Assembly (NCBI GenBank): GCA_903824785.1
Contig: CAIJYD010000051.1
Location: 45,926 to 109,925, forward strand
Origin: an uncultured Bacteroidota bacterium
GTDB taxonomy: Bacteria; Bacteroidota; Bacteroidia; Bacteroidales; VadinHA17
Length of the DNA stretch: 64,000 nt
Reading direction: 5' to 3'
Of this stretch, positions 29,603 to 59,074 are shown in pieces. Below the pieces are notes generated by a model. The model was not told the DNA's origin. It made no database searches and saw only the letters and a list, made by a program, of their open reading frames with translations. A program made the translations under genes and the position numbers. Position 1 is the stretch's first letter, and each line of letters opens with the position of its first letter.

Positions 29603-29703
29603 ATCTTTAATATTTTACACAAATTATTATTCAAATTTTAAGATCTGTTTTAATTACGATCTATTCCTGATCAAATAAATCTTTAATCAGAAACAAGTGA
29701 CTT

Positions 29704-30846: not shown

Positions 30847-30888
30847 TTGATTAGGTTTTTTAGGTTGGATTAAAAACAGTTTACTTTA

Positions 30889-43218: not shown

Positions 43219-44991
43219 TTATTTGACTATTATTCCCTTACCTTGCTGAATGGTAAGGTAGCGGTCAGCAGCAATATTCTTATAAACCTCCTTCGTTCCG
43301 TCCGACCAGGAGATCTCAAGAGTGCCGATCTGTTTCTCCTTTCCCAATCCTATATGGAGGCGGGGATCGATATTGGAAAGGTAGCTTGTAGTCCACTGGT
43401 TAACGAAAACCTGCTTTTTTTCACCTGCTGTAACCATTACTTTTGCTGCAATTGCAGAAGCCGGTCCGTTTTTTCCTTTCAGAGTCAACCCCAGCCAATG
43501 GTTTGTGTTGCCACCATCATTTCTCAATAAAGCGGCTGTTGTCTGCTTGTCAACATGAGAAATAATTATATCAAGGTCTCCGTCATTATCATAATCCAGG
43601 ACGGCAAGTCCTCTGCCTGAGCGTTTTGTGGAAAAATAGTCACCCCGCTCCTGCCCTGTGTTTGTAAAATGGCCTTTCCCGTCATTCTCCAGCAATAGTG
43701 GTAATTGAAGAATAAGTTCTTCTGCTGTACCATTTGCAGCGACCATATCCAGATCGCCATCATTGTCATAGTCAAAAAGCACTGCACCCCAGCTGCCTTT
43801 ACCCTTAATATAACCTGCTATACCGCTTGTTTCAGTAATATCTTCAAACAGGCCATTTCCCTTATTACGGTAAAGGGCACCATATTCAAGATCAGTAACA
43901 AGCAGGTCAATAAGCCCGTCACCATCAACGTCGCCTAACGATCCGTGCATGGAACCGGTTCCTTTTCCAAGGCTGTTTACTGCAACGCCACTCTCCACAC
44001 CTGCCTCCTTATATACACCCTTGTCATTTCTGAAGAGGAAATTAAGCTGGTGGTCATTTGCCTGGAAGATGTCAAGGTCTCCGTCATCATCAAAATCGAA
44101 TATTGTCAGTCCCATACATTTAGAATCGGGGTAATAGAGGCCATTCTGCCGGGTAACATCAATAAATTTCCCATCGGGCTGCTGTTCATAAAGCATCGAA
44201 GCCTGACCTTTATATTCAGATGGATGCGGCATCATACCCGGTGCTGAAGCAGAAACATAAGCAGGGTCGAAGGCAAGGAAATTGCCAACCATTGCATCAA
44301 GTCTTCCATCTTTATTATAATCCCAGAATGAAACACCAATACTCCATTTTAAAAATCCGTTTAATTTTTCAGGACCGGCCAGCCCTAATGAATTTGTTAT
44401 ATCAGAAAAGGTACCGTTTCCATTGTTACGATAAAACAGATTAGCCCCATAGTTCAGAAGATAAAGATCCTGATCGCCGTCATTGTCATAATCAATAGCA
44501 CCTGCGGCCATGCTCCAGTGCCGGTCGTCGACTCCTGCTGATTCCGAAACCTCTGTGAATGTTCCGTTTCCGTTGTTCCTGTAAAGCTCGTTATGAGTGT
44601 TCTTAAATACTTTCCCGTCCGGATCAGAGATACCCTCAAGGTAAGTCCCGTTCATAAGGTAAAGATCCATCAGATTATCATTGTTGTAATCGAATACAGT
44701 AATCCCCGATCCACTGCTTTCCAGGATGTTAACATATGAGTAGTCACCTATAGTGTACTTAAAATCTATTCCTGCCTTTTTGCTGACCTCTCTGAATGTC
44801 ACCGGGTTTTTCTGGGCACAGATCTGAAACTGGAAAAATGTTAAAAGGAAAACTGCCACAGACAAGAATAGTTTTAAACCAGATGCTTTAGCCCCAAAAT
44901 CTTCCAGAGGGATTATACCGTCAAAATGGTCATCAACTCTCCCTTCCCGGAATTCAGCAGAGACTGACCTGTTATTAAAATACAACATCAA
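43219..44991 (-). CDS. CRTAC1-family protein (FG-GAP repeats with C-terminal ASPIC/UnbV domain)
   Basis: FG-GAP motifs (DYNNDNLMDLYL, DYDNDGDQDLYL, FDFDDDGDLDIF, DVDGDGLIDLLV and others). C-terminal NHWLGLTLKGKNGPASAIAAKVMV...RLHIGLG...ISWSDG. The start codon is uncertain. Confidence 0.85.
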   Translation of the reverse strand: MMLYFNNRSVSAEFREGRVDDHFDGIIPLEDFGAKASGLKLFLSVAVFLLTFFQFQICAQKNPVTFREVSKKAGIDFKYTIGDYSYVNILESSGSGITVFDYNNDNLMDLYLMNGTYLEGISDPDGKVFKNTHNELYRNNGNGTFTEVSESAGVDDRHWSMAAGAIDYDNDGDQDLYLLNYGANLFYRNNGNGTFSDITNSLGLAGPEKLNGFLKWSIGVSFWDYNKDGRLDAMVGNFLAFDPAYVSASAPGMMPHPSEYKGQASMLYEQQPDGKFIDVTRQNGLYYPDSKCMGLTIFDFDDDGDLDIFQANDHQLNFLFRNDKGVYKEAGVESGVAVNSLGKGTGSMHGSLGDVDGDGLIDLLVTDLEYGALYRNKGNGLFEDITETSGIAGYIKGKGSWGAVLFDYDNDGDLDMVAANGTAEELILQLPLLLENDGKGHFTNTGQERGDYFSTKRSGRGLAVLDYDNDGDLDIIISHVDKQTTAALLRNDGGNTNHWLGLTLKGKNGPASAIAAKVMVTAGEKKQVFVNQWTTSYLSNIDPRLHIGLGKEKQIGTLEISWSDGTKEVYKNIAADRYLTIQQGKGIIVK

Positions 44992-45002: not shown

Positions 45003-48000
45003 TTATTTGATTTTCAAAGCATTAAGATAGGCATCGCGGGTTACTACCCGGGTATTATACTCCTGATGATAATTCTGAAGTTCAGGATCATCGGGGTATT
45101 TATCATCCGGTGAAGGGGGGTAAGCTGACATACCATGAAAAGGAAGCGGAAGCACAGTATTCCCGGTTGCCGTGTTGATATCACCGTCTTTTACCCAGCC
45201 AACACTGTTAATAAGAAAATCCCTTTTCCACCCGGCTTTTAGTTCAGGTAATCCCTTCTGATCAAACCTGACAGATGTTTCGTCACCGGCGTTGGAGATA
45301 ATGTATTTATTATCGGACTCTGTCAGCAGAGGCAGCACATCACCGTATCGGGTATAGCTTCCCGGCAAGTCTCTCCATTTATGATTTGTATCAACATTGG
45401 AATAATCAAACCAATGGGGACCGAACCGGCCGCCTTTTCTAAAAGAGCCGGAGAAACCCCTGTAATGAATTTCGGCTGAAACCGGATTCATTACTGTTGA
45501 AACCTGTGGCGCATCTGAAAGTTCATCGGAAAAAAATATCTGATCCCAGTAGATCTCCATATTGGTTAAGATCCTTATCCTGTGATCGGATGAAAGAAAT
45601 TTACCGGAAAGGTCGGCAATTACCATTTTGTCTTTACCCATCGGGAAGCCCGGATTGTTAATTACCGTTTCCCATGCCCCTTTTTTATTAATAACCTGTA
45701 TGACTGGCGGATTAACTTTCAGGTTACCTGATTGTGAAATGGCCACGTTAATGCTGGCATCAGTGGGGAAGATCCATCCATTCATGAAAAGAAATAATTT
45801 TCCATCCTTACCAATTTTACCCGGATCGAGAATGAGCTCTTTCATGGCTGTAACTCCCTGATATTTATCGGGTTTGAAATCAGATACATATTTATCATCT
45901 TTTTCGGAGATAACCGGAAGCAGATCGTTTCCCTGCGAATCGGTAGCCGAAAGGGGAAGATGCTTATCCCTGACCTGGTAGGTTTTCATTCCGGGAAAAG
46001 GAGGGGGAGAAAACTGTTCCGCAACAAACAGGTCAACTGAATCGGGATGATCGACAGCCACCAGGCGGATCTTATCGAGATATATTGTCTCCCACAATTC
46101 AGATGTGAGCTGAATGGAATAGATTCCCTCTTTCGGTTTTAACACCTCTGAAGGAATTTTAATATAGTCATCCGATGCATCGGCGAAAGCATAAGCAGTT
46201 GCACCGCCCATGATACCCAGCGGCATACCGAGTGCACTTCTCCAGAGAATATCCTTTACAAAAACAAATGCTTCTCCGTTCCAGGTATAAAGAAACGGGC
46301 ATGACCCTTTCAGCGTTTGTGCTTCAATAAGTGACTGATCTGTACCGGGAAAGAAGATATTCTGAGGCACGCCGTTTGTCCAGGTAATTCTGATAACATC
46401 TGCTGTTGAGCGGTGTCCAACGCCAAAATGGACATTAGGATCGGTAACCGTGGTAGTCTGATAAAGGTCTCCTGACCGCATTTCAACTTTTGCCCCAATC
46501 CCGAAATGGTTGTTTTTCGCACTTCCGGCTCTCAGCCCTACAAGTTTAACCCTGAGAAAATGGTTATTGTTACCACCGTCATTGCGTAAAAGGGAGATCC
46601 CTCCGTTCATGCCGGCGATGACAAGGTCGAGGTCGCCGTCATCATTGTAATCAAATACTGCTATCTGCCTTCCCGACTTCACCTCTTCAGGCAAAAGATG
46701 GGAAACACCGGAAAAGTTTCCTTTCCCGTCATTATAATAAAGGAATAACCCTCTTCCTCCTTTTTCCTTAGGTTCACCGGCAAAAAGAAGATCGAGATAT
46801 CCGTCGTTGTTAAAATCGAAAAAAGAGGCGTCATAACCTTTTACATTCTGAATTGAGCTGAACATCTCTTTTGAGTTTTTCTCCAATTCGAAAGTGCCAT
46901 CGCCCCTGTTCCTGTATAACCGGTGAACTTCTCCGCTTACTGAAGTGATGAAGAGATCAAGAAATCCATCATTATTATAGTCTCCTGCCACGACCGAACC
47001 GGATCCACCTTCACTTTTCAAACCGCTTTCAACAGTAATATCTTTGAAGAGACCCTGTCGCTGATTTGAGTATAAAATATTACCTGCATTTTCATTTACG
47101 ACAATAAAATCGATATCCCCATCTTCATCAAAATCGCCAAAGGCTGCATCGCGGCTGTTAACATCCGAAGCTGACAATCCCATTTTTCCGGCTTGCTCCT
47201 GAAAAGTGCCATCGGAATTATTTCTGAACAAAAGGTTTGATTTATTTCCCGTTTCAAACAGATCCAGATCTCCGTCATGATCAAGATCGAAAGCCAGAGC
47301 CATATTTCCTCCGGTTTTACTACCGATAAGAGCTTTATTTGTGACATCTTCAAACGCACCTTTCCCGGTGTTCCGGTATAAAATATCACCATCTTCTTTT
47401 ACAATGAACAGGTCGGTGAAGCCATCGTTATCAAAATCGGCCAATAAGGCTGAAGTTTCTTTGCCTGAATGAGTTATTCCGGTTTCAATTGAAACATCAG
47501 TGAATCTTCCCATCTCATTATTGAAAAGAAAATGTTTCCAGGATGAAGTTGCCGGATCGTAACTACCTGCATAAAGATCTATATCACCATCCCCGTCATA
47601 ATCGGCAGCTGCCACGTGAGAAGGATATTCTGAAAGAGGAACAAGATCCAAACCTGCAGAAGAAGTTACATCATTGAATTTAACGACATCCAGAAGAGAT
47701 TGATTTTCAACTATCTGAGTAAGCATCTGCTGATCAAAAGTAATCAGAGGAAATCCTATGAGCGAACCACCGGGGCCCTTTAAATCCATTATGCCTGCCT
47801 GATACGGAGATGTTACTTTCAGATAATTATGAAAAATCGTAAATTGAATAATCGCATTTCCCTTATCCTGTTTTTTCAGCAATGACGATGCTTTATCGTA
47901 ATATTCAATAGCTTCCTTTGGGAATTCGGGGAACTGTTTATGTATTATTTCAAGTTTTTCAAGAGCCTTATCGTTTTCTCCGTTGACGATATAGATCTCT

Positions 48001-48569
48001 GTCAGGTTAAGGAGCGGTACTAAATTTCCGGGGGCTTTTTCAACGAGCTGAAGTAAATAGTTCTCACGTTGCTTCCGGGAATCCTCATCTGAAGCTGCAG
48101 TGTATAATTCAGAAAGATCATATAGAATTTTTATATTGTCGGGAGCAAATTTAAGAGCCTCTTTAAGTTCTGTAACAGCTTTTTCCCGTTGATCATTCAT
48201 CTGGTAAACTGTTGCCAGAATCAGACGGATGTCAGGATCGGCAGCATCAATTTTAATTGCTTTCAGCAGTTGTTTTTCAGCTTCCGGATACCTTCCCATT
48301 CTAAGGTAGGCAAGGCCGAGGTTTGCATATCCCAGTTTCTCTTTGGGTGCCAGTTTAATAAACTTCAGGAACTCTTTTTCCGCATCTTCCAGTTTAAACT
48401 CTTCAAGATAGGCAAGTCCCAGAGTTTTTATTGTCATCAGATCAAGAGATTTCTGCTTTGCTTTCTCCGGACTCTCCTTACAACCTAAAAATGAAAGGGA
48501 GATAATTGCAAACAAGAGCAAAATTTTCAGGCTATATTTAATATTACACATAAAAGTATTGAATTTCAA
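45003..48569 (-). CDS. TPR plus FG-GAP plus ASPIC/UnbV lipoprotein with a large uncharacterised C-terminal module
   Basis: Lipobox SFLGC. About 250 aa of TPR-like repeats (LGLAYLRMGRYPEAEKQLLKAIKID...), then FG-GAP motifs. ASPIC block NHFLRVKLVGLRAGSAKNNHFGIGAKVEM...ITWTNG. About 430 aa follow without a recognised motif. Confidence 0.85.
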   Translation of the reverse strand: MKFNTFMCNIKYSLKILLLFAIISLSFLGCKESPEKAKQKSLDLMTIKTLGLAYLEEFKLEDAEKEFLKFIKLAPKEKLGYANLGLAYLRMGRYPEAEKQLLKAIKIDAADPDIRLILATVYQMNDQREKAVTELKEALKFAPDNIKILYDLSELYTAASDEDSRKQRENYLLQLVEKAPGNLVPLLNLTEIYIVNGENDKALEKLEIIHKQFPEFPKEAIEYYDKASSLLKKQDKGNAIIQFTIFHNYLKVTSPYQAGIMDLKGPGGSLIGFPLITFDQQMLTQIVENQSLLDVVKFNDVTSSAGLDLVPLSEYPSHVAAADYDGDGDIDLYAGSYDPATSSWKHFLFNNEMGRFTDVSIETGITHSGKETSALLADFDNDGFTDLFIVKEDGDILYRNTGKGAFEDVTNKALIGSKTGGNMALAFDLDHDGDLDLFETGNKSNLLFRNNSDGTFQEQAGKMGLSASDVNSRDAAFGDFDEDGDIDFIVVNENAGNILYSNQRQGLFKDITVESGLKSEGGSGSVVAGDYNNDGFLDLFITSVSGEVHRLYRNRGDGTFELEKNSKEMFSSIQNVKGYDASFFDFNNDGYLDLLFAGEPKEKGGRGLFLYYNDGKGNFSGVSHLLPEEVKSGRQIAVFDYNDDGDLDLVIAGMNGGISLLRNDGGNNNHFLRVKLVGLRAGSAKNNHFGIGAKVEMRSGDLYQTTTVTDPNVHFGVGHRSTADVIRITWTNGVPQNIFFPGTDQSLIEAQTLKGSCPFLYTWNGEAFVFVKDILWRSALGMPLGIMGGATAYAFADASDDYIKIPSEVLKPKEGIYSIQLTSELWETIYLDKIRLVAVDHPDSVDLFVAEQFSPPPFPGMKTYQVRDKHLPLSATDSQGNDLLPVISEKDDKYVSDFKPDKYQGVTAMKELILDPGKIGKDGKLFLFMNGWIFPTDASINVAISQSGNLKVNPPVIQVINKKGAWETVINNPGFPMGKDKMVIADLSGKFLSSDHRIRILTNMEIYWDQIFFSDELSDAPQVSTVMNPVSAEIHYRGFSGSFRKGGRFGPHWFDYSNVDTNHKWRDLPGSYTRYGDVLPLLTESDNKYIISNAGDETSVRFDQKGLPELKAGWKRDFLINSVGWVKDGDINTATGNTVLPLPFHGMSAYPPSPDDKYPDDPELQNYHQEYNTRVVTRDAYLNALKIK

Positions 48570-48656
48570 GCGGTTTGGACTGGATTCTCATTTAACCCTT
48601 TAATGTTTTTTATAGCATCAAATTTAAGAAATAAAAAGAATTTAATACCGTGGTTT

Positions 48657-49802
48657 TCATTCAACTGCAGCGGGATGTCCGTTTTTTATCTCCATCAGCA
48701 CTCCGGGATTCACCCTGTTTCCTTTGGCATCAAATGTAATTGTTCCTGTAACCCCTTCGAATTTAAGGTCCGCCAATGATTTTTGAATCTTATCACGGTC
48801 ACCGCCGGCCTTTCTGACAGCCTCAATAATCATGTTCATACCATCGAAGGCATAAGCAGCAACTGCCCCCGGCATAGTGCCGTAAGTACTCTGATATTCA
48901 TCAATGAAGGCAGACCCCCCGGCACTCAGCCAATGACCCGGTGTTATCAGAACAACACCCTCATATTTCTTTAATTCCATTTCAGACAACTCTTTTTCAT
49001 CGAGCAGGGATAATGCACCAAAAACCTGCCTGCTCATTTTTCTATGCCTCATCTGGTCGATAATTTTAATTGAAGAACGAGGTAGTCCGAAAAGGATAAT
49101 TGCCTCACTTCCTGCTTTATCTAACTCATCAATGATCGAAGTAAAATCCTGATTCTGATTATCATAAGAAAACAGTGCAGGGACCGGCACCCCTTTTGTT
49201 TTTGCTGTTTTCAGGAAACTGGATATGGCGAGTTTTGAATCATACCCATCATCGCCTACCAGAGCTACTTTACTAAACTTTCTTTTAGTAAATATTTCAT
49301 GGATGAGCAGGTCTGCCTGCTGGAGATTGTTTGGAACACAATTGAAAAACCAGGGAACAAATGCCTGGGAGAGGGTTGGATCAGCGGCCCAGGCTGATAA
49401 GAAAACTATCCGTTCTTTTGTGGCCACCTGCTCTGCAAGGTGTGCATTCCTCCCGTAGTGAGAACCTATAATTGCCCATACCTTTTCATCAAAGATCAGG
49501 TTTACCGTCTCTTTGGAACCTGTTCCCCAGGGTCCTTCCATAGAACGCACAACAAGACGAACAGGGTGCCCGTTGCAACCACCGTTCTGATTTGCGGTTC
49601 TGACGGCTATTGCAGCCCCTTGCCTGGCTGAGGGTGATTTATTGTCTGATATTAACAGACCGATTTTTACGGTATCGCCTTTCAGTTCGTTTCCCGGAAA
49701 CGGCTGAACTCCACAGACAACATAATAAGGAAGAACAGTTACCAGGAATACCGGGAATAAGAATTTAAGAAATCGCATATAACTATTCCCTGAAACCTTC
49801 AT
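48657..49802 (-). CDS. LivK-type (Peripla_BP_6) periplasmic substrate-binding protein, orphan
   Basis: Signal sequence (the likely true start is the Met of MRFLKFLF at about 49778). Type I periplasmic-binding-protein pattern, including [19 protein letters not shown]. Confidence 0.75.
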
Positions 49803-49818: not shown

Positions 49819-50679
49819 TTATGAAATATTTCTATCGACAGCCAGTGCTATTTTTTTCAGCTCCTTTATCAGCTGTTCAAACTCAGGCAGATTAAGTGAT
49901 TGGTGGCCATCGCATAACGCTTCCTCAGGGTTGCAATGGACCTCCATAATGATACCATCGGCTCCAACGGCAACAGCCGCTTTTGTCATTGCAGGCACCA
50001 TCCATCTCAGACCGGTTCCATGGCTGGGATCTATTATTACAGGAAGGTGGCTCAGCCGTTTAAGCATTGGTACAGCGCTAAGGTCGAGAGTGTTTCTGGT
50101 AGATGTTTCAAAGGTGCGGATACCACGTTCGCAGAGTATTACCTGATCGTTACCCTGATTTAGAATGTATTCAGCTGCCAGCAAAAACTCCTCAATGGTT
50201 GCCATCATACCCCTTTTGAGCAAAATCGGTTTCTTGCATAATCCTGCTTCCTTTAAAAGAGGAAAATTCTGCATATTTCGTGAACCTATCTGAAGCATAT
50301 CGGCATAGCCTGCAACCAGTTCAACCTGACGTGTATCCATTACTTCGGTCACCAATGGCAGACCTGTTTCTTTACTTATTAAACCAAGGAGCCGTAACCC
50401 CTCTTCTCCCATACCCTGAAAGTTATAAGGAGAAGAGCGTGGTTTGAAAGCCCCTCCTCTTAATATCCCTGCTCCACCTGCCGCTACTGCTCTGGCAGTT
50501 TCAAACAACTGATCCTGACTCTCAACAGCGCATGGCCCGGCAATTATAACAATATCCGAACCACCTATCGTCACCCCGGCAACGTTTACTATTGTTGCCT
50601 CAGGCTTTATCTTGCGACTAACCCTGGGGGGAATTGGAAATCCGGCATTTACAGGAACATCGCATGAATTAGTTTCCAT
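49819..50679 (-). CDS. aroF: 3-deoxy-7-phosphoheptulonate (DAHP) synthase, class I-beta, no regulatory domain
   Basis: [10 protein letters not shown] and [27 protein letters not shown] are near-identical in pattern to Thermotoga/Bacillus-type DAHPS. DPSHGTG metal/substrate motif. No signal peptide. Confidence 0.8.
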
Positions 50680-50698: not shown

Positions 50699-52012
50699 TT
50701 AATAACTTCCGGTTTTGCTGCCTGTTTTTGTCTTCAGATCCAAAGGAGGAGCCGGAGAAAATAAGAACTTACCATTCCTTACTTCAGCCATAAATATGTC
50801 TCCCATATCATTCCAGCTTCCATCCAATATAATCTTCCCGGTTATCCCCTGATATCCCTGAAATGTCTTTCTGTCGGTAAGCACATCGCGCAGAAGGACG
50901 CGGTTAAGTCCCACTTTACGGATAGCTTCAATAGTTATGTTCATACCATCATAAGCATGTGCAGCAAACACATCTGGCTCCTGTCCAAACCTCTTCAGGT
51001 AATCTGCCTGAAAGGTTTTCAGTTTAGGATTATCCGAATCAGGATTATACTGACAAGTAGTAACAACACCTTCAGCCAGATTGCCGGCTATTTTCAGAAA
51101 CTCAGGAGAAACAACCCTGTCGGAACAATAGACAGGCTGTTTCAAGCCTGCTGAACGAATCTGTTTGAGAATAAGTGCTGACTCTTTTGCATTTCCCCAA
51201 ACTAAAATTGCATCAGGTGAAGTTCTTTTAATCCTTTCGAGTTGTGAAGTAAAATCGATATCTCCGTCAAGAAACCGTTCTTCAATGACAACCGGATGGC
51301 CAATGCGGATTGCCGCATCGGTATATTCCTTTATACCCACACGTCCATACCGGTTATTAGGTCTGATAACAGCAACACGGGTATGTCCCTCCTTTTCATG
51401 TATATAATTAAGCAATGCGTATGAGCTGGCTCTGTCATCGCTTATCACACGAATCGTCCAGGGTATGTTTGTCTCTGTATAAGTTGGGTCGGGATTTCCT
51501 GTACAGACCATAAAGATCTCAAGCTTTAAAGCAGCACGCAGGGCAACATGGGAAACAATATCGTCAATTGAGCCAAGAAAGAGCCAGACTTTTTCATCAT
51601 CCATTTTTACCACTTCGTTGGCTGCAGCACCCCATAAACCGGCATCATTATGAGGCATTAAGACAAACGGCAAACCACGGTAACCTCCTTTTTTATTAGC
51701 CGCTTCAAGGGCCAGTGTTGCTCCCTGAAGCATCTGCAAACCCTGAGGAACCATTATAGAACCGCTTAAAGGCCCGAGAAAACCAATTCTTACTTCTTTC
51801 AGACCAGAAGGGGCAAGTTTTTCACGACCGGCACCATTAAACGTGAGAGGGATAAGAAAGTGATATTTATAAGCTTTAGTGAAATTCTGATATGGGAAGA
51901 TCTCATCAGGTGCTTTTCCGTAGTTCTGTGTTTTCTCCTGTCCATAAACGAAGGAAACAGGAAGAATAAAAATCAACACAAAGATTGCAGTAGAACAGAA
52001 TTTAGCTTTCAT
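50699..52012 (-). CDS. LivK-type (Peripla_BP_6) periplasmic substrate-binding protein, orphan paralogue
   Basis: Start moved to the Met of [25 protein letters not shown] (signal peptide). The longest ORF (to 52063) would overlap the upstream gene by 41 nt. [19 protein letters not shown] parallels the other binding protein. Confidence 0.75.
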
Positions 52013-52022: not shown

Positions 52023-52598
52023 TTATACAGATTTACATATTGCGTATGCTTCAATTTCAACAAGCAGGGTCTCCCAGCATAATCTTGCCTGAATCCCTGT
52101 GCTTGCCGGAAGAGGATCGAGATTCATCCACTGATAAAAAGAGGTACGGATCTTATTGAATTCGGCATAATCCCGCTCAATGTCCCTGAGGTAATTTGTT
52201 GTTCTCACAACATCGTGCCACGACATTCCTTCTGCCTCCAGAAGTGTTGTAATATTGCGGTATGTTCTCCATAGCTGAGCCTTAAAATCACCAATATGTT
52301 CAGGTTTCCCCTCTTCATTTACGCTGGCAGTACCCGAAATCAATAAAACTTTATAGCCTCCAAAGTCAAGTCGCAACGCTCTTGAGAAAGAGGATGGTTT
52401 CTGGTAGTCGTAAGCTTCATTCAATACCTGAGGAGCATGCACAACATGTTTCTCTATCGGAGGACGACCTATATGCACGGAAGGATAGATGAACCCTGAT
52501 ATCTTGTTCTCATCCGTCAACATTCCGAGTTTTTTCATCTCAATCTTTTCTCCATCTGTAAGTTTTGCCAGATCAATCAGTAACTGCTTATCACCCAT
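52023..52598 (-). CDS. RidA/YjgF-fold protein with a chorismatase-like (FkbO/Hyg5-type) ISGTAS signature
   Basis: The C-terminal 130 aa follow the YjgF pattern (...VRTTNYLRDI...PASTGIQARL...LVEIEAYA). The active-site strand reads LLISGTASVNEEGKPEHIGDFKAQ rather than the SGQ of canonical RidA. There is a ~60-aa N-terminal extension and no signal peptide. Confidence 0.6.
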   Translation of the reverse strand: MGDKQLLIDLAKLTDGEKIEMKKLGMLTDENKISGFIYPSVHIGRPPIEKHVVHAPQVLNEAYDYQKPSSFSRALRLDFGGYKVLLISGTASVNEEGKPEHIGDFKAQLWRTYRNITTLLEAEGMSWHDVVRTTNYLRDIERDYAEFNKIRTSFYQWMNLDPLPASTGIQARLCWETLLVEIEAYAICKSV

Positions 52599-52652: not shown

Positions 52653-53852
52653 TTATTTCATCAACTCCCCGCGGCTTACTCCTTTTGAAGTGGCAACCCA
52701 TAATACGTCAGCATCAGCATCAACACCAATAATAAAATTATGTGAAATTGATGGAGAGAGCGGAAGTTCTTTTTTCTGAGTACCATTTATTATTATGGCC
52801 ATTCCATTACTATTGTTTTCATTCTTTTTATAGGTAACCCAGTTTTTCCCGTCCGTAGTACTAAGTCCCTTATCGGAGCAGATAAAAACCCATGGCCCCT
52901 CTGCCCGTACAAAGTTGATGAAATTACTTGCAAGACCGCTGTCGTGATCAAAAAATCCCTTCCAGTGAGAACCATCATAACTGGATAATCCAAAGTAGGT
53001 TGACACCCATAGCATTCCATTAGCGTATGTTGTTCCGGTTGTTATATCATGAACAGGGCCATCATCGGGAAGAAGATCTATTTCCATCTCTCCGTCTGGA
53101 TCAGTGTAGTCTCTGAACTGTTTTGTTTTGGTTGTATATTCTATTACTCCTCCGCCCCAGGCAGCAATAAAGATCTTGCCATCTCCTGCAGAGATTCCGT
53201 ATGTCCATGGTTCATGCATAGGAGCATTCTTTTCAGTAAAAATCTCCCACTTTTTTGTATAGGTATCATATTGGCCGGCACCACCTCCTGTTGCAACCCA
53301 AACATCTTTCCCATCACAGATAACGCAATAGACCAGATCGTTTGGCATTCCGCTGTTGAACTGGGTAAAATTTTCAAATTTACCTCCCGACCAGCAGCTT
53401 AATCCTCCAAGGGTTCCGATCCAGACATCACCAGTAATTTCACTGACATCAATTGATACAACCCCGTTATGCGGCAACCCATCTTTTGAAGTATAGGTCC
53501 GCCACTTGCCTTTTTCATAAACGGCAAGCCCATCATGAGTACCAACTAATACCCTGTCGCCGTCAATACGAACGCAATAGGCTTTATCAGAAGGCAATCC
53601 GTCTTTTGTTGTAAAATTTTTCCAATTACCATATACAGGTACAGGTTTTGAATCCGCTTTCGAATCACTTGTTTTACTGCCAGTTTCAGTCAATCCTTTC
53701 AGATTACCATCAGTAACCGGCTTATCCGCAGTTATATCATTTCTATAGCCAGGCTGATTCTCAACAATGATAAATCCTGTTGAAAGTAAACCTGAAATGG
53801 CAACCGGGAGCATAGCAAATTTAAACCAATTCCTTTTATCTCTCTTTTTCAT
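52653..53852 (-). CDS. membrane-anchored beta-propeller built from two-component-regulator propeller (Reg_prop) repeats, no output domain
   Basis: N-terminal TM helix. Repeated units of the form F/Y-T-x-x-DGLP-x-x-x-V-x-x-I-x(n)-VW-x-G/A-T-x-GG-L (for example FTTKDGLPSDKAYCVRIDGDRVLVGTHDGLAVY and YTSKDGLPHNGVVSIDVSEITGDVWIGTLGGLSCW). Confidence 0.7.
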   Translation of the reverse strand: MKKRDKRNWFKFAMLPVAISGLLSTGFIIVENQPGYRNDITADKPVTDGNLKGLTETGSKTSDSKADSKPVPVYGNWKNFTTKDGLPSDKAYCVRIDGDRVLVGTHDGLAVYEKGKWRTYTSKDGLPHNGVVSIDVSEITGDVWIGTLGGLSCWSGGKFENFTQFNSGMPNDLVYCVICDGKDVWVATGGGAGQYDTYTKKWEIFTEKNAPMHEPWTYGISAGDGKIFIAAWGGGVIEYTTKTKQFRDYTDPDGEMEIDLLPDDGPVHDITTGTTYANGMLWVSTYFGLSSYDGSHWKGFFDHDSGLASNFINFVRAEGPWVFICSDKGLSTTDGKNWVTYKKNENNSNGMAIIINGTQKKELPLSPSISHNFIIGVDADADVLWVATSKGVSRGELMK

Positions 53853-53870: not shown

Positions 53871-55895
53871 TTAAAATGAAGCATGATATAACTTTGAAGA
53901 TTTATGTTCATAGGCCGGAGCTCTAAGTGATTTCAGATAATCGACCAGATCGTTAAGCTGATTTTTTGTCATGTCATTTGCCAGTCCATGCTTATCTTCC
54001 TTACCATACTTTGTCCAAATCTCTTCAAGAGTCGCTGCGCGTCCATCGTGCAAATAGGGAGGGGACGCAAAAATATTATTAAGGTGTGGTGTGTCAAACT
54101 GAATCGAATCGTCAGATATAGCCAGCGTACCTACACTGGCAAGTTTTAAATTTGTAAAATATGGCGGAGGATGACAGGTAATGCATCTATTATTTTCAGG
54201 GATTATTTTACCTGTATTATCCTTTGAACGTTCAAAAAGATCTTTCCCCCGAAGCTGCGATTCAGTAAGTTTTCCTTCGGGGTTATACTGCAGATTAGGA
54301 GGATAATGAATTCCTGTTATTATATAGGCTGTTATTGCATCAAGGTTATTATAACTAAACTGTTCAGTCCTTGTAAGAACAGTAGAAAATCTCATCCCGT
54401 CCTGTTTGTAAACGGTCTGGTTTTTACCATTCCATTTAAATGGAGGGGTATCGCCAATATCGCGTAATGACTGGGTATTGGTAAGGTTACGTCCCATATC
54501 TTTTGAGGCCATATTGTACACAAGGCCATCCTCATGCATATCGGGGTGGCAGGTATAGCAATCGAACTGATTCTGAAATGTATGTCCTGAATTGTTAAAA
54601 AGCCTGCGCCCCTGACGGGCAACAGTAATTCTCCGCGGACCGCCAAGATCGATAGAATTGATTTTCTCAAGCGTTTCAGTATTTATAACTCCAATCCTGT
54701 CTTCGAGCTGTTCGGCAACATAAAGACGTTTCCCGTCAGGAGAAAGAACGAGTCCTTTAGGATCAGCACCGGTTTTAATGCGTTTGATAACATAGCGGCT
54801 GCTTATTCCAAGATTATTCGAATAAGTTTTAACCACTTCAGGTGTAGCTTCAGCAATTAAGCTCCTTACAGAGTCGATATCGACAACAGAAATGCAATTA
54901 ACACCGGAATTTGAAATAAAAGCTTTTTTGCCATCCGGAGAGATAACAATATCGAAGGGATCGCAATAATAGGCATTCGGTTCATCGAGCAAAAGCTGAA
55001 TAACCCGGCCATTTTCCTTCTGTTCAACAATACCTATTCCATAAGTCATCATCCACCCCTGTTCAACCTGTATTGAAGGAACAAGGTTCTTTGGTCTGAT
55101 AAGTGTAATTATTGCCAGATCTCCGCCCGGAGTAAAGGCAATGTTCTCCATGATATATGCCGATTCTATGGTCTTTCGTTCAGTAACTCTTTGCCTGCTC
55201 TCATCAATTACAGTAAGCTCACTTTTAAGGGTATCGCCGTATGGGGCAAGAAGAGCACGCCTGCTGGTAACATATAAAGTTTTGCCATCGGGTGAAAGCT
55301 GGGTTCCTGTAGGATTATTACCTGCAGTAAATCTTTTTCGTTCTTCTCCGGTATTGAGGTCAATAACAGTAACATCTGAAGAAAAAGAATTTACGATATA
55401 AAGTAATTTGTCGTCGGCGCTTAAGGAGAGGCCTGCAGGACCATTTCCTGTTAAAAGAGTATCAACCACCTTCGATTTGGCCAGATCTATTACCGACACA
55501 TTATCAGACCACTGATTACTCACATAAGCCTTTTCTCCCCTGTCATCAATTACCACACTATGAGGGTACTCTCCGACTTTTATCTTATTTAATACCTTAT
55601 GACTTTCAGGATCAACTACCATCAACGTATTTGCCTCCTGTGCCACGACATATAGTCTGTCACCGTTTTTGGAAACAGCCATATTGAACGGCGAATAATA
55701 ATCAGCATTAATAAGCTTTGAGACAAGTGGATTCTTTGAGGTATAAAGATGGCAGGAGATACAGAGAAGAGGATGATCTTCAACAGCAGTCTTGGTATTA
55801 ACATGTTTCCGGGCTATTTTGCGTCCGGGGAAATATATGGCCAAACCAACCACAAAAAGAATTCCAAAAATCAACAATAATTTTGATGTCTTCAT
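53871..55895 (-). CDS. tri-haem c-type cytochrome: YVTN-type beta-propeller fused to a di-haem cytochrome c peroxidase/MauG-like domain
   Basis: N-terminal TM anchor. Three CxxCH motifs (CISCH, CYTCH, CITCH). YVTN-like blades (LYVVAQEANTLMVVD, AYVSNQWSDNVSVIDL, LYIVNSFSSDVTVIDL, LYVAEQLEDRIGVIN). The C-terminal TPHLNNIFASPPYLHDGRAATLEEIW matches the CCP/MauG signature. Confidence 0.8.
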   Translation of the reverse strand: MKTSKLLLIFGILFVVGLAIYFPGRKIARKHVNTKTAVEDHPLLCISCHLYTSKNPLVSKLINADYYSPFNMAVSKNGDRLYVVAQEANTLMVVDPESHKVLNKIKVGEYPHSVVIDDRGEKAYVSNQWSDNVSVIDLAKSKVVDTLLTGNGPAGLSLSADDKLLYIVNSFSSDVTVIDLNTGEERKRFTAGNNPTGTQLSPDGKTLYVTSRRALLAPYGDTLKSELTVIDESRQRVTERKTIESAYIMENIAFTPGGDLAIITLIRPKNLVPSIQVEQGWMMTYGIGIVEQKENGRVIQLLLDEPNAYYCDPFDIVISPDGKKAFISNSGVNCISVVDIDSVRSLIAEATPEVVKTYSNNLGISSRYVIKRIKTGADPKGLVLSPDGKRLYVAEQLEDRIGVINTETLEKINSIDLGGPRRITVARQGRRLFNNSGHTFQNQFDCYTCHPDMHEDGLVYNMASKDMGRNLTNTQSLRDIGDTPPFKWNGKNQTVYKQDGMRFSTVLTRTEQFSYNNLDAITAYIITGIHYPPNLQYNPEGKLTESQLRGKDLFERSKDNTGKIIPENNRCITCHPPPYFTNLKLASVGTLAISDDSIQFDTPHLNNIFASPPYLHDGRAATLEEIWTKYGKEDKHGLANDMTKNQLNDLVDYLKSLRAPAYEHKSSKLYHASF

Positions 55896-55897
55896 AT

Positions 55898-57337
55898 CTA
55901 TTCCAATGAAATCTTTTTTTCAGCGATTTTACTAATGTGAACCGGAATAACGACCGGAGGATTTTTAACTGACATTGACAACCTGTTTTCCGGAACTATC
56001 TCACGGTCCTCATGGCATCCGACACATCCACGCCTCTCATTTGGCCTTAGCCAGATCCAGCCACCCGGTCCGTTCAGAACTTTTCCTTTTTCATCAATCG
56101 TCTGAATCCTGAATGGGGTATCAGCTATCACTTTTAAATAGACCGAGCCATCTTTCTCAACATTTACCACACCAAGTGTTGAATCAATTCCCAGAACCTC
56201 AATCATACCGGCGTTGAGAACAGAGACTGAACTTACTGATAGGGGATCCGTGAAATTGATATCCTGGCAAAAGAGCAACCCCGATTTCACTCCAAAATCT
56301 ACTTCGCTTGGCAATTTTTTTGGTCTGTCATGTGTTTCAACTGCAACAGCTTCCAGAACATTGTAATCTGCATTGCTATAAAGAACAGATCCGAGAGATT
56401 TTTTATCAGGATCAAATTCATAAAGTGAATATGTTTTTGCTTCCGGCGAACGGTAAGAAACCATAAGTTTTCCTGAATTTAAAGGGAAGGGAGGACCGAA
56501 ACTTCCTTTAATTTCGGAAGTTAAATTAACCCTGCTGTGCAAAGGGCGGTTATATTTAACTGAAATTAAATTTCCTCCTGACAGGGTATCGGAGTCTGAT
56601 TCTGTAAATATTATATTTCCATTTGTAGTTTCCCTTATCCTGCTTTGCAAAATACTACCCTCCAATCCTTTATAGAATAGTTCCGATTTTGTGCCGTCAG
56701 GTCTTAAAACCATCAGCACAGGATCACGATTATCCGGGAAAAGTTGTCTGCTGATTGTCACTACGCGACCATCTTTTAAAACAGAAGAAGCGAAATAAGT
56801 ATGAGGATTGAAAGTAACACGTTTAAGGTCAGAACCATCAAGGTTGCAAGTATAGAGTGAATGCCCTGCCTTCATTGTTTCTTTCATATCGATCTTGCTG
56901 AATAAGATGCGTCCTCCAGGTAAATAAGCAGGATCGATACAGTTTTCCAATGAAGAGAAAACCTGTTTTATTTTCATATTATTCAGATTCATCTCCCAGA
57001 TCTGCCACGGATCGTTCTGTTTTTGCTGAGCAGAAAAGAGCATCGATCCGGCATCATAAGAAATATCAGGAGAGAGTGCAGAATAGAATCCTCCTGTAAG
57101 CAGCTTAACCGGTTTTTCTGGTTTACCGGGGTCAATTGCAACAATGTTAGCCTGAGAAATATATCGCCAGGAATCTCCGGAAAAATAATTTCCTTTCTTT
57201 ATCTCTCCTGCATATTGAGTTAAAATGACCATCCCGTTCATTGACTTTCCCCTGCAGGAAGAAAAGAAAATGGTAAATAAGCCAATAGCCACTATTAATA
57301 AGAGTGAAAGGGCAGCTCTGTTTCTGTTCATTAACAA
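55898..57337 (-). CDS. TolB-like beta-propeller lipoprotein with a C-terminal single CxxCH haem-binding motif
   Basis: Lipobox FFSSC. TolB/WD40-like blades (DPWQIWEMNLNNMKIKQV, LYTCNLDGSDLKRVTF, VLRPDGTKSELFY). The C-terminal segment is WIWLRPNERRGCVGCHEDRE. Lies 2 nt from the next gene. Confidence 0.7.
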   Translation of the reverse strand: MLMNRNRAALSLLLIVAIGLFTIFFSSCRGKSMNGMVILTQYAGEIKKGNYFSGDSWRYISQANIVAIDPGKPEKPVKLLTGGFYSALSPDISYDAGSMLFSAQQKQNDPWQIWEMNLNNMKIKQVFSSLENCIDPAYLPGGRILFSKIDMKETMKAGHSLYTCNLDGSDLKRVTFNPHTYFASSVLKDGRVVTISRQLFPDNRDPVLMVLRPDGTKSELFYKGLEGSILQSRIRETTNGNIIFTESDSDTLSGGNLISVKYNRPLHSRVNLTSEIKGSFGPPFPLNSGKLMVSYRSPEAKTYSLYEFDPDKKSLGSVLYSNADYNVLEAVAVETHDRPKKLPSEVDFGVKSGLLFCQDINFTDPLSVSSVSVLNAGMIEVLGIDSTLGVVNVEKDGSVYLKVIADTPFRIQTIDEKGKVLNGPGGWIWLRPNERRGCVGCHEDREIVPENRLSMSVKNPPVVIPVHISKIAEKKISLE

Positions 57338-57343: not shown

Positions 57344-59041
57344 TTAAGGTTCTTTAACCGAAAGGATCTGATTAGCTTTGACATTCTCCAAGACCTGAAC
57401 TTTACCTGATGGCCACTTAATTTCAATTTTTTCAACCATCTCATTTTTTGCAAGTCCAAAATGGAGACGAGGATCATTCTGTGAAAGGTAACCTGTTGTA
57501 CTTCTTTTCTGTGCTGTCTGAACTTTTCCACCGGAAATGACCTTTATCCTGGAGCCTAATCCATCTCTGTTACTGGTAGTTCCTGTTAAATCGAGGGTGA
57601 GCCAGTTATTCTGATTTCCTTTATTGTTTCGCAGTAATACTCCCCGGTCGTTAAGGTTCACTATAAAGGCATCAATATCGCCGTCGTTGTCGTAATCACC
57701 CAGACATGCTCCGCGCCCAACCAGCTCTTTCTGAAAGTATTTTCCACGTTCAGTTGAAACATCAAGGAATTTTCCATCGCCTGAATTTTCAAATATCTGG
57801 TCTTCATGCCCGTACAGATGCTTCAAGGCACCATTTGTTTTAAAAATGTCCACATCACCATCATTGTCATAATCCACAAAAGAGGATGACCATCCGACAT
57901 ACTGGGCTGCTGCCATTGAAATACCGGAACTATAAGATCTGTCAGAAAAGACGCCGTTCCCAATGTTTTCATAAAGAGAACAGTACTTATCATCAGAAAC
58001 GAACAGGTCGAGAAGTCCGTCTCCGTTATAGTCGGCAAAATCGACCGACATACTTACAGTTGCTTCTCCTGCCTGGCTGAAGGCTGTTCCCGACATTGTC
58101 CCCTTATCAGTAAATCCTTTCCCTCCGTCGTTATGCCAGAGATAATTCACTGTATGATCATTTGCTACATAAACATCCACGAAACCATCATCATCATAAT
58201 CGGCTGCCCCCACGCCCATGGCCCTTCCGTCAAGGTCGGTTATTCCCATGGCTTTGGTAACATCTTCAAAGATACCATCTCCCATGTTGTGGTAAAGGAA
58301 ATCCGGCTGACTGTCATAAGCCATAGGGCCCGGAAATCCATCGGGAGCATAGTAATATTTATACTGAGGATCAAAATTCAGGTAGTTCCCGACGTAAAGA
58401 TCAAGCAGGCCGTCATTATCATAATCAAACCAGACAGCTCCTATACTGCATTCATTTCCTGCTACTTTGGCTTTTTTTGTTACATCAGAAAAAGTTCCGT
58501 TACCATTGTTTTTATAAAGTACATTGGGGCCGTAATTACTTACATAAAGGTCAGGAAAACCATCGTTATTAAAATCGCCTACTGTTACACCCATGCTGTA
58601 GCCATGACCACCGACACCGGCTTTTTTGGTAACATCTTCGAAGGTACCATTCTGAAGGTTACGGTAAAGATGGTTCTCAGGCAACTTACCGGGTTTTTCG
58701 GTCCCGGTGAAACCTTCGAGCCATGTCCCGCTGCAGACATATAAATCAATATAGCTATCCTTATCATAATCAAGAAAAGCAGCTCCGCCACCGCTTGATT
58801 CGACAATATTGGTGAGATGTTCAGCACCTATAGAATGGACAAAATCAAGTCCGATCTCCTCATCTATCTCCTGAAAAAAATCATCATTTGCCGGTGCAAG
58901 AATTTCAGCAGATTGCTTCTTCAACTGTGAGGAAGGCTTATTATCCGACTGGCATCCGGACAGTATCAGCATAATAAAGAAGACGGATAATAAATACCCA
59001 TAATCATTCACACTGATGTAAATATTTCTAATTGTAATCAT
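57344..59041 (-). CDS. CRTAC1-family lipoprotein (FG-GAP repeats with C-terminal ASPIC/UnbV domain), first gene of the array
   Basis: Lipobox ILSGC. FG-GAP motifs (LDYDKDSYIDLYV, GDFNNDGFPDLYV, FDYDNDGLLDLYV, ADYDDDGFVDVYV, ADYNGDGLLDLFV, VDYDNDGDVDIF, GDYDNDGDIDAFI). ASPIC block NNWLTLDLTGTTSNRDGLGSRIKV...RLHFGLA...IKWPSG. Confidence 0.85.
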   Translation of the reverse strand: MITIRNIYISVNDYGYLLSVFFIMLILSGCQSDNKPSSQLKKQSAEILAPANDDFFQEIDEEIGLDFVHSIGAEHLTNIVESSGGGAAFLDYDKDSYIDLYVCSGTWLEGFTGTEKPGKLPENHLYRNLQNGTFEDVTKKAGVGGHGYSMGVTVGDFNNDGFPDLYVSNYGPNVLYKNNGNGTFSDVTKKAKVAGNECSIGAVWFDYDNDGLLDLYVGNYLNFDPQYKYYYAPDGFPGPMAYDSQPDFLYHNMGDGIFEDVTKAMGITDLDGRAMGVGAADYDDDGFVDVYVANDHTVNYLWHNDGGKGFTDKGTMSGTAFSQAGEATVSMSVDFADYNGDGLLDLFVSDDKYCSLYENIGNGVFSDRSYSSGISMAAAQYVGWSSSFVDYDNDGDVDIFKTNGALKHLYGHEDQIFENSGDGKFLDVSTERGKYFQKELVGRGACLGDYDNDGDIDAFIVNLNDRGVLLRNNKGNQNNWLTLDLTGTTSNRDGLGSRIKVISGGKVQTAQKRSTTGYLSQNDPRLHFGLAKNEMVEKIEIKWPSGKVQVLENVKANQILSVKEP

Positions 59042-59066: not shown

Positions 59067-59074
59067 CAAACATA
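59067..59074 (-). promoter_or_regulatory. candidate Bacteroidota -7 promoter box (TATGTTTG) upstream of the 19-kb array
   Basis: The minus strand reads TATGTTTG, matching TAnnTTTG about 26 nt upstream of the ATG at 59041, in a 193-nt AT-rich spacer. No clear -33 element was seen. Confidence 0.3.

Follow-up and report, generated by a model that had tools for sequence, protein, structure and literature searches.

Introduction

Hydrazine synthase (HZS) was long thought to have no relatives, and both its origin and its two-haem mechanism have lacked a comparative framework. Two adjacent genes on contig CAIJYD010000051.1 of an uncultured Bacteroidota bacterium (lineage VadinHA17) raise the question of what the building blocks of this enzyme do outside anammox bacteria. 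The genes lie in a 64,000-nucleotide stretch of DNA (contig positions 45,926 to 109,925), the whole of which is called the window. A preliminary description of this DNA had pointed to propeller and c-type haem domains like those of HZS. The analysis reported here indicates that the two proteins are homologs of the HZS subunits, that they belong to a conserved operon of exported proteins, and that they almost certainly make no hydrazine. As a best guess, to which we lean without conviction, they constitute a periplasmic alpha/beta-gamma haem complex, a non-anammox HZS homolog that carries out peroxidase/MauG-like or other small-molecule redox chemistry.

The gene pair and its haem motifs

The first gene of the pair, designated alpha-like (55898..57337, minus strand), is an open reading frame (ORF) of 479 aa, for which gene callers favor a 477-aa protein starting from the ATG at 57331. 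The second, designated beta-gamma-like (53871..55895, minus strand), encodes 674 aa. The two lie on the same strand and are joined as TAG-AT-ATG, with a gap of 2 nt. The ORFs and the junction are confirmed, and translation verified the haem motifs listed in the preliminary description. The alpha-like protein contains one CxxCH motif, CVGCH at aa 438-442 (56012-56026). The beta-gamma-like protein contains three: an extra N-terminal CISCH at aa 45-49 (55749-55763), directly past the membrane anchor, CYTCH at aa 446-450 (54546-54560), and CITCH at aa 571-575 (54171-54185), all on the minus strand. In addition, PPYLHDGRAATLEE is found at aa 612-625 of the beta-gamma-like protein. The real CxxCH motifs of the window are confined to these two genes; the one additional match is an 82-aa segment inside the span of the ORF at 10439-11908. 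C438, C441, and H442 of the alpha-like protein are invariant in 81 orthologs, as are the three motifs of the beta-gamma-like protein in 68.

The two genes are co-translated members of an operon, and their products face the periplasm. The alpha-like protein carries the lipobox FFSSC, with Cys28 retained in 98% of the 81 sequences. The N terminus of the beta-gamma-like protein is an uncleaved hydrophobic helix, which spans aa 2-36 in the AlphaFold2 (AF2) model. Two invariant histidines, His31 and His41, are candidate sixth ligands for the CISCH haem.

Homology to hydrazine synthase

The alpha-like protein comprises a PD40/TolB-type propeller, of the six-bladed type, and an HZS_alpha middle domain with one c-type haem. 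The middle domain, whose presence in the 479-aa protein the preliminary description had left to be established, is found at aa 386-443, CVGCH included (56009..56182, minus strand), with a score above the Pfam cutoff (PF18582, 6.1e-19, 68.8 bits versus 26.6). The top NCBIfam match is hydrazine_alpha (9e-32, 110 bits versus an equivalog cutoff of 800). The best PDB sequence match is 5C2V_A, the alpha subunit of HZS from 'Ca. Kuenenia stuttgartiensis' (Dietl et al. 2015), with E-values of 2.2e-20 for the single sequence and 2.7e-42 for the family profile. The same chain ranks first in a Foldseek comparison of the model with the PDB (E 3.6e-24, TMq 0.70), followed by TolB (3.5e-11). The propellers of the pair are modeled confidently and the alpha middle domain with moderate confidence.

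The propeller and the haem-bearing middle domain are thus shared with the Kuenenia enzyme. However, the alpha-like protein stops 37 aa past CxxCH, whereas HZS-alpha runs approximately 220 aa further, so that the bis-His haem alphaII domain is absent; in total, the alpha-like protein is about 300 aa shorter. Judged by sequence and fold, the alpha-like gene is an HZS-alpha homolog truncated past the first haem.

Two cysteines of the alpha-like protein (55898-57337, minus strand), Cys133 and Cys357, are nearly invariant in its family. The former (ENCIDPAYLP) is also a cysteine in HZS-alpha (GTCRSPIYY). Cys133 might take part in a disulfide, coordinate a metal, or touch the haem. A subset of the alpha-like relatives, represented by P0163, P0188, P0191, and P0233, reads RRGF(A/T)GW(D/N) and not RRGCVGCH(E), so that their middle domain is a haem-less version of HZS_alpha.

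The beta-gamma-like protein consists, from the N terminus, of the membrane anchor, the extra c-type haem, a seven-bladed YVTN propeller, and a di-haem domain of the type found in cytochrome c peroxidase (CCP), MauG, and HZS-gamma. As predicted in the preliminary description, profile searches of the pair detected YVTN/TolB-type propellers and CCP_MauG; the Pfam matches of the beta-gamma-like protein are YNCE, lactonase, and YVTN propellers and CCP_MauG (5e-8, 34.1 bits versus a cutoff of 25.6). Its top NCBIfam match is the hydrazine_BC fusion (9.7e-70, 235 bits versus a cutoff of 1250), accompanied by hydrazine_beta (1.6e-60, 205 bits versus 560) and hydrazine_gamma (1e-22, 81 bits versus 625). 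The best PDB sequence matches are 5C2V_B (2.7e-50) and 5C2V_C (3.7e-18).

The HZS-beta-like propeller (aa 62-406; 54678..55712, minus strand) aligns to residues 8-349 of the 352 residues of 5C2V_B and is modeled with a predicted local distance difference test score (pLDDT) of ~90. 5C2V_B is also the first Foldseek match of the model in the PDB (E 2e-29, TMt 0.87, root mean square deviation 3.0 Å). Both seven-bladed propellers have a loop insertion in blade 6, which reads RPKNLVPSIQVEQGWMMTYG here. The HZS-gamma-like di-haem domain (aa 420-657; 53925..54638, minus strand) matches 5C2V_C with a profile E-value of 7.2e-24 and shares with it an 'xHG' insertion that is absent from CCPs. Co-operonic genes are a trait of both systems, and the fusion of beta with gamma has a parallel in Scalindua. 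The order of the genes is reversed relative to HZS, with alpha first, and the N-terminal haem and the membrane anchor are additional. The beta-gamma-like gene is an HZS-beta-gamma fusion extended by these two elements.

With PF18582 above its cutoff, chains A, B, and C of 5C2V best by sequence, and chains A and B at the top by fold, the resemblance to HZS building blocks drawn in the preliminary description turns out to be real homology, and the domain matches lie well outside what chance would give. Homology to HZS and an HZS-like organization of subunits are, in our judgment, very probable.

Quinohaemoprotein amine dehydrogenase (QHNDH) and methylamine dehydrogenase/MauG similarly combine, in the periplasm, a seven-bladed propeller subunit with di-haem cytochrome modules. 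The QHNDH beta subunit is a weak match (TIGR03907, 2e-16; 1JJU_B at Foldseek rank 13). In contrast to these systems, the operon encodes neither a small subunit with a cofactor nor a conserved radical-SAM maturase, and the likeness lies only in the generic YVTN propeller.

Residues that define hydrazine synthase are absent

In HZS-alpha, the haem motif is part of the sequence CSGCHYGSYRG; the proximal ligand of the haem is Tyr591, and His587 and Cys303 jointly bind zinc (PMC12607021). The alpha-like protein reads CVGCHEDREIV at the haem site and has no equivalent of Tyr591, and the position of Cys303 is occupied by a leucine (FYKGLEGS) in the profile alignment. Because Tyr591 and the His587/Cys303 zinc site are both absent, a canonical His-ligated alpha haem is expected. 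The only conserved histidine in the alpha-like family is that of CxxCH, and the sole conserved methionine, Met116, sits in a repeat motif of the propeller, as would fit a five-coordinate alpha haem that is open and reactive.

The gamma-like domain differs from HZS-gamma at three positions. Gly500 aligns with Cys165, the third covalent haem link in HZS, and invariant Trp488 aligns with His144. Phe503 replaces Asp168, which is the proton donor of HZS (PMC12607021). In the HZS beta-loop (residues 245-260), which reaches the inter-haem tunnel, a pair of glutamates, one of which may be the Mg-binding residue, aligns with Gln276 and Glu278; the beta-loop glutamate is not conserved in non-anammox homologs (PMC12758564). 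The NCBIfam hydrazine synthase scores of both proteins are four- to eight-fold under the equivalog cutoffs. The 64-kb window contains no other cytochrome gene and no gene for hydrazine dehydrogenase (HDH) or hydroxylamine oxidoreductase (HAO) as a partner. Further differences from the HZS system are the absence of an anammoxosome and the presence of the operon in aerobes, among them Maribacter polysiphoniae.

Since the HZS-defining residues are absent, the resemblance is one of ancestry and architecture and not of function. We are nearly certain that the complex is not a hydrazine synthase and makes no hydrazine. The opposite reading, a true hydrazine synthase or a different enzyme that forms N-N bonds and serves a cryptic anammox-like pathway or a hydroxylamine/NO step, could draw on the presence of homologs of all three HZS subunits in one operon and on the neighboring binding proteins, which belong to an amino-acid/urea/amide-binding family. 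It is strongly disfavored, to the point of being barely credible: every HZS-specific catalytic feature that can be placed is missing (alpha-Tyr591, alpha-Cys303, haem alphaII, gamma-Cys165, gamma-His144, and gamma-Asp168), as are competitive equivalog scores and HDH/HAO or other cytochrome genes in the window, the operon occurs in strict aerobes, and a survey of the family reached the same conclusion (PMC12758564).

Relation to a published family

That survey (Hagglund et al. 2025, Genome Biol Evol; PMC12758564, December 2025) described non-anammox HZS homologs as pairs of alpha and fused beta-gamma proteins in clades I-IV. In clades I-III, the pair is accompanied by a linked gene for an FG-GAP/CRTAC1 partner (PMC12758564). 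In clade III, this gene lies upstream of alpha, which in turn lies upstream of the fused beta-gamma gene; alpha is without haem alphaII and the C-terminus, one extra haem motif is found on beta-gamma, and two genes for ABC-type binding proteins follow downstream (PMC12758564). The homologs have a gap at Tyr591, have lost Cys303, and have changed His144 to tryptophan; they were concluded not to be hydrazine synthases, and no function was proposed (PMC12758564). The supplement includes Bacteroidales alpha homologs of ~484 aa and Maribacter beta-gamma homologs of ~678 aa (PMC12758564). Earlier, Dalcin Martins et al. 2023 had proposed that hzs-like genes belong to a wider family acting on other substrates (PMC10732223).

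Each feature described for clade III is matched by the window locus, in gene order, motifs, residues, and binding-protein genes. The locus therefore corresponds to clade III by anatomy, as compared with the clade description and the hit tables. The resemblance to HZS is thus already published, and the locus is a further case of a known type of family and operon. Several operon members are not mentioned in PMC12758564, namely a sensor-type propeller, a RidA protein, a DAHP synthase, a lipoprotein with tetratricopeptide repeats (TPR) and FG-GAP repeats, and a frequent upstream two-component system of CusRS/HprRS type. Its main text stresses a few anaerobes, whereas here the full operon is confirmed in the 80 best-matching genomes, aerobes included.

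A conserved operon of exported proteins

Conservation was assessed by tblastn of the window proteins against the 80 best-matching loci of at least 541 reference genomes with an alpha-like relative. The order, strand, and spacing of the operon genes are the same throughout the 80 loci. The genes encode, in order, an FG-GAP/CRTAC1 lipoprotein, the alpha-like protein, the beta-gamma-like protein, the sensor-type propeller, RidA (optional), binding protein 1, DAHP synthase (optional), binding protein 2, and the TPR-FG-GAP lipoprotein. The alpha-like gene (position 0) is present in all 80 loci, and the beta-gamma-like gene is adjacent to it, at +1.7 kb, in 73. The propeller proteins are therefore co-conserved, which favors the reading in the preliminary description. 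Loci without one of the core genes, including the seven without an adjacent pair, appear to be cut by contig ends, though this was not checked locus by locus.

The first operon gene encodes FG-GAP565, an FG-GAP/UnbV_ASPIC (CRTAC1-like) lipoprotein of 565 aa (57344..59041, minus strand; Pfam FG-GAP_3 7.4e-51, UnbV_ASPIC 1.1e-22). It lies 6 nt upstream of the alpha-like gene in the window and at -1.6 kb on the same strand in 78 of the 80 loci, with 66-81% identity. The protein matches human CRTAC1 (9ETN, 7.7e-21), and its lipobox LSGC is conserved. On the other side of the pair, at +3.4 kb and on the same strand in 69 loci, is the gene for the membrane-anchored sensor-type propeller of 399 aa (52653..53852, minus strand; PDB 4A2L 1.5e-24, 3V9F 6.8e-14). 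Its homologs are the glycan-sensing periplasmic domains of hybrid two-component systems (HTCS) of Bacteroides, but kinase and receiver domains are lacking here.

Two orphan binding proteins of the Peripla_BP_6 family follow, each encoded in 64 of the 80 loci. Binding protein 1 (50699..52012, minus strand; Pfam 1.6e-47) has 437 aa from the ATG at 52012 and a cleavable signal peptide; its gene is downstream of the RidA slot. It is distant from the branched-chain amino-acid binder (77.6 bits versus a cutoff of 477). Binding protein 2 has 381 aa (48657..49802, minus strand; Pfam 2.1e-44), and its gene is downstream of the DAHP synthase slot. No homolog of an ABC permease or ATPase is present among the operon genes or the conserved ORF clusters of the loci. 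The last conserved gene encodes a lipoprotein with TPR, FG-GAP, and UnbV_ASPIC domains as detected by Pfam (45003..48569, minus strand; a 1188-aa ORF, 1182 aa from the ATG at 48551). The lipobox cysteine of this protein is conserved, and the gene is found at +9.4 kb in 55 loci; many of the loci without it end before its position, again not checked locus by locus. The core of the operon thus amounts to seven exported proteins, of which three are lipoproteins, two are membrane-anchored, and two have a signal peptide.

The two remaining members are of a different kind. The RidA/YjgF-family protein (191 aa; 52023..52598, minus strand; Pfam Ribonuc_L-PSP 2.3e-16) has no signal peptide. Its gene is at +4.3 kb in 47 loci, and the slot is empty in loci that have both flanking genes. 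The DAHP synthase (286 aa; 49819..50679, minus strand) is a cytoplasmic enzyme of type I-beta without a chorismate mutase domain, and its scores mark it as genuine (NF006421, 441.9 bits versus 335; TIGR01361, 394.6 versus 267.75). Its gene lies between the two binding-protein genes in 56 loci, with 63-82% identity, and is missing from the operons of L010, L038, L067 (Maribacter), and L078, all four of which have both genes for binding proteins. An integral role of DAHP synthase and RidA in the mechanism was considered and rejected; the two are best regarded as accessory because they are cytoplasmic and are missing from loci that contain the flanking operon genes.

The RidA protein has a conserved N-terminal extension of ~70 aa (LLIDLxKLTDGExxEMKKLG) and a faint similarity to FkbO/Hyg5 chorismatases (TIGR04444, 4e-5). 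The chorismatase-like similarity and the DAHP synthase could hint at a shikimate-derived metabolite.

Distribution and upstream regulators

The family is large. The alpha-like protein belongs to a set of 3,396 clusters at 50% identity, 381 of them at E <= 1e-30, and its top matches are mostly of the short form of 450-500 aa. For the beta-gamma-like protein, more than 2,541 clusters were found at E <= 1e-10 among the scored candidates, and the source names of these clusters are only 'YVTN family beta-propeller protein' or 'lactonase family protein'. The reference genomes with an alpha-like relative, at least 541 at the species level, include members of other phyla. The best 80 are all Bacteroidota, comprising Bacteroidales, Prolixibacteraceae, metagenome-assembled genomes labeled Rikenellaceae, and Flavobacteriaceae, with nearest relatives 66-68% identical. 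Their sources are lakes, fens, groundwater, soils, and the sea, and they include aerobes (Maribacter) as well as anaerobes.

De novo clustering of the ORFs in the 80 loci picked up genes for a two-component system, namely an OmpR-family response regulator and a HAMP/HisKA sensor kinase, which lie immediately upstream of the operon in the same orientation. Of the 49 loci with at least 6.5 kb of upstream sequence, 28 have this gene pair. Examples are L006 (5989-8115), L004, L009, L013, L022, and L029.

The di-haem domain and peroxidases

The di-haem domain was placed by ranking of E-values and by hhalign. Its profile matches HZS-gamma (7.2e-24) far ahead of Shewanella CcpA (2.4e-5), MbnH (2.7e-5), and Nitrosomonas CCP (3.3e-4), and MauG is not matched among the PDB sequences. 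This ranking puts the domain outside the ordinary peroxidases. The preliminary description had considered that the domain might cluster with ordinary CCPs; the distance between HZS-gamma and the best CCP, 7.2e-24 versus 2.4e-5, speaks against this.

With the CCP/MauG/MbnH/BthA superfamily (PF03150) the domain nonetheless shares two c-type haems in a two-lobed fold, the PY(F/L)HDG motif, and, by alignment, an inter-haem tryptophan and a tyrosine as a candidate for the sixth-ligand position that it holds in MauG and BthA. It differs in that the similarity is weak (E ~1e-5 versus 1e-24 for HZS-gamma) and the methionine ligand of CCPs is replaced. In addition, a propeller, an extra haem, and a membrane anchor are part of the same polypeptide, and the protein is paired with a second haem subunit.

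Trp488 (54432-54434, minus strand; coordinates verified) is invariant in the 68 orthologs. The position of gamma-His144 has been equated with the inter-haem tryptophan of CCP and MauG (PMC12758564). By this alignment, Trp488 takes up the inter-haem tryptophan position. Gln498 (Trp+10) and Glu511 (Trp+23) are also invariant in the beta-gamma-like family. Their spacing is roughly like that of the distal Gln/Glu acid-base pair at the peroxidatic haem of Pseudomonas aeruginosa CCP, which we take as a lead.

The sixth ligand of the second haem may be either of two residues. The C-terminal lobe aligns by hhalign with the C-terminal lobes of CCPs at a probability of 96.5%, the comparison set being C-terminal fragments of <=142 aa from a search seeded with a CcpA fragment. 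In this alignment, the invariant methionine ligand of CCPs corresponds to Tyr630 (54006-54008, minus strand; coordinates verified), which is 97% conserved. Tyr630 also aligns with a tyrosine of MbnH (6E1C) in the profile alignment. His/Tyr haem ligation is the state of MauG and BthA, and tyrosine ligation is needed for the bis-Fe(IV) state (PMC6405878). The second residue is His636 (53988-53990, minus strand; coordinates verified). His636, giving a bis-His haem like HZS gammaII, and Tyr630, giving a His/Tyr haem like that of MauG and BthA, are equally good candidates on present alignments.

The tryptophan at the inter-haem position and the tyrosine at the Met-ligand position argue for CCP/MauG-like chemistry, as do the apparently open alpha haem and the frequent presence upstream of a CusRS/HprRS-type system for envelope metals or oxidants. 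Oxidant-driven chemistry of this kind at the di-haem domain is a tentative proposal that we rate somewhat short of probable. In its simplest version, the pair would be an elaborate periplasmic peroxidase that detoxifies oxidants, with the di-haem domain acting as a functional CCP and the alpha-like and N-terminal haems serving as electron-transfer stations only. The Pfam score of CCP_MauG, the presence of Trp488, the alignment of the C-terminal lobe, the HprR/CusR-type regulator in many loci, and the spread of the operon over aerobes and anaerobes would all fit. However, the CCP methionine ligand is replaced, and the first-haem half has no CCP similarity. Moreover, an operon of seven to nine genes with four propeller proteins and two binding proteins goes far beyond the needs of detoxification, and the lack of a conserved sixth ligand in the alpha-like family is unusual for a pure electron-transfer haem. 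A mere detoxifier is accordingly an improbable reading.

Proposed mechanism and its alternatives

The favored reading is the periplasmic haem complex with peroxidase/MauG-like or other small-molecule redox chemistry introduced at the outset. The alpha-like and beta-gamma-like proteins would form a complex that is tethered to the inner membrane. Electrons would be taken up or released at the membrane-proximal haem (Cys45/Cys48/His49) and at the second haem of the di-haem domain (Cys571/Cys574/His575, with His636 or Tyr630 as sixth ligand), and would pass by way of invariant Trp488 to the first, catalytic haem (Cys446/Cys449/His450). The first haem would react with a small oxidant as in di-haem peroxidases and MauG, most likely H2O2. 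It would also be coupled, past a conserved GWMMTYG loop of the beta propeller, to the open-coordination haem of the alpha-like protein, as in HZS. There, a second substrate might be transformed after being delivered or presented by the binding proteins, the CRTAC1-like lipoproteins, and the sensor-type propeller.

Coupled two-site chemistry as in HZS is a doubtful part of this scheme. Bolder still, and rated lower, is the proposal that a widespread periplasmic machine has kept the unique two-active-site design of HZS, in which an open haem in a propeller subunit is coupled to a di-haem site, here of the CCP/MauG type, and uses it for another reaction. Possible reactions of such a machine are an oxidant- or N-oxide-driven change of a binding-protein ligand and the installation of a cofactor or metal site on a CRTAC1-like partner.

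Several observations weigh against the favored reading. Conserved His636 lies in a three-residue 'KHG' insertion that is shared with HZS-gamma ('MHG') and absent from CCPs, and the second haem may be bis-His, as in HZS gammaII, and a plain electron-transfer haem instead of a His/Tyr haem. When the first-haem half alone was compared with the PDB, it aligned with HZS-gamma only and not with CCP, MauG, or MbnH. The haem domains of the beta-gamma-like AF2 model are unreliable, with pLDDT <50, so that haem ligation, the tunnel, and the alpha/beta-gamma interface are proposed by analogy with HZS. The upstream two-component system is absent from the window. Elsewhere, its best NCBIfam matches, of the heavy-metal/CusRS/HprRS type, are below the curated cutoffs. 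The periplasmic loop of the one kinase inspected, that of L006, is almost without His, Met, and Cys, and the signal is therefore not obviously a metal. Finally, literature searches on HZS_alpha proteins and on bacterial FG-GAP/UnbV/CRTAC1 partners returned no functional data, be they biochemical, genetic, or expression data, for any operon member.

An alternative is that the beta-gamma-like protein is a protein-modifying enzyme of the MauG/MbnH type. H2O2 or O2 would generate a high-valent, bis-Fe(IV)-like state, stabilized by His/Tyr630 ligation and Trp488, which would oxidize residues of the FG-GAP/CRTAC1 or alpha-like protein by long-range hole hopping and so create a cofactor or a site for a metal. 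A copper site is built on MbnP when this partner is modified by MbnH, and the FG-GAP/CRTAC1 protein would be a ready partner, being linked to the pair in clades I-III and in 78 of the 80 loci. The placement of Tyr630, at the Met-ligand position of CCPs and opposite a tyrosine that is a putative ligand in MbnH, the invariance of Trp488, and the Cu/oxidant-type two-component system that is often upstream would also fit. Yet the actual sixth ligand may be His636. By E-value, the domain lies much nearer to HZS-gamma (7.2e-24) than to MbnH (2.7e-5), MauG being unmatched, and the conserved, apparently open haem of the alpha-like protein would remain unexplained. We consider this alternative unlikely, though less so than simple detoxification.

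Genomic surroundings

Two copies of the Bacteroidota -7 box TAnnTTTG lie in intergenic positions on the minus strand: one at 59067-59074, 26 nt upstream of the FG-GAP565 start codon, and one at 48619-48626, upstream of the start of the TPR-FG-GAP gene. With 48 copies versus 59.8 expected, the motif shows no enrichment in the window, and the two sites weakly suggest an operon promoter and a possible internal promoter. Sigma-70 promoter-like sites in the operon are at chance level (48 versus 42.2 expected), sigma-70 being the wrong promoter model for Bacteroidota. Terminator-like hairpins of the operon fall within coding sequence by their coordinates, and Rfam scans of the whole window and the leader region found nothing.

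The flanks of the operon in the window are not conserved with it. Upstream are genes for a DUF6528 protein, an MFS transporter, a SelA-like protein, and an AKR protein. Downstream are those for a third FG-GAP protein, an Asn-synthase-like protein, a radical SAM protein, and a hydrolase, followed by a polysaccharide-utilization locus (PUL). The last spans 13591-31983 and contains SusC/SusD genes (20088-24933), genes of the GH3, GH5, GH20, DUF4838, and DUF5060 families, and FAD/4Fe-4S oxidoreductase genes (13591-16109). The preliminary description had set the haem genes in a saccharolytic context next to FG-GAP proteins. The SusC/SusD and glycoside hydrolase genes and the FG-GAP neighbors are indeed real; the PUL is nevertheless incidental, and the conserved context is the operon of seven to nine genes for exported proteins. 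A functional link between the PUL and the haem genes was rejected since the PUL is not conserved with the operon.

Alternatively, the haem proteins could be redox accessories of a surface system that processes polymers or glycans and is built from the FG-GAP and sensor-type propellers; the haems would supply or remove electrons, for instance while a polysaccharide or matrix polymer is cleaved oxidatively or cross-linked. In favor of such a role, the sensor-type propeller is related to the HTCS sensor domains that bind glycans, the window holds five FG-GAP/UnbV paralogs in addition to the PUL, and a divergent SusC-like receptor is encoded ~6.6 kb upstream of the operon in ~21 related loci. No carbohydrate-active domain is found in the conserved block, however, and the lipoproteins have no obvious acidic surface-export signal past the lipobox cysteine. 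Together with the lack of conservation of the PUL genes, this makes a role in polymer processing very unlikely.

The five FG-GAP/UnbV_ASPIC (CRTAC1-like) paralogs are encoded within 27 kb, at 32270-35602 and 35761-39066 on the plus strand and at 43219-44991, 45003-48569, and 57344-59041 on the minus strand. The operon includes only two of them, those of 1188 and 565 aa. The two plus-strand paralogs, of ~1100 aa each, have a C-terminal sequence of ~500 aa without a domain assignment. Overlapping genes downstream of the operon (39906-43103, minus strand) encode a BD-FAE-type alpha/beta hydrolase, the radical SAM protein, and the Asn-synthase-like ATP-pyrophosphatase. The radical SAM protein is closest to the archaeosine RaSEA family (123.5 bits versus a cutoff of 212). 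The radical SAM and Asn-synthase-like genes lie upstream of the operon in L025 and L026 only.

Significance

Annotation of metagenomes is directly affected, as an HZS_alpha domain or hzs-like BLAST matches are no evidence of anammox. Ordinary heterotrophic Bacteroidota, among them aerobes that can be cultivated such as Maribacter, carry the family in abundance. HZS-type architecture goes together in it with CCP/MauG-type residues, and its operon, which encodes exported propeller and binding proteins, is tightly conserved. The occurrence of the family in culturable, tractable bacteria makes the ancestral function of the HZS scaffold accessible to experiment, with new periplasmic haem chemistry as a possible gain. 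If the proposal of a two-site machine adapted to another reaction were true, the family would represent a new class of haem enzyme as well as the living outgroup out of which hydrazine synthase arose.

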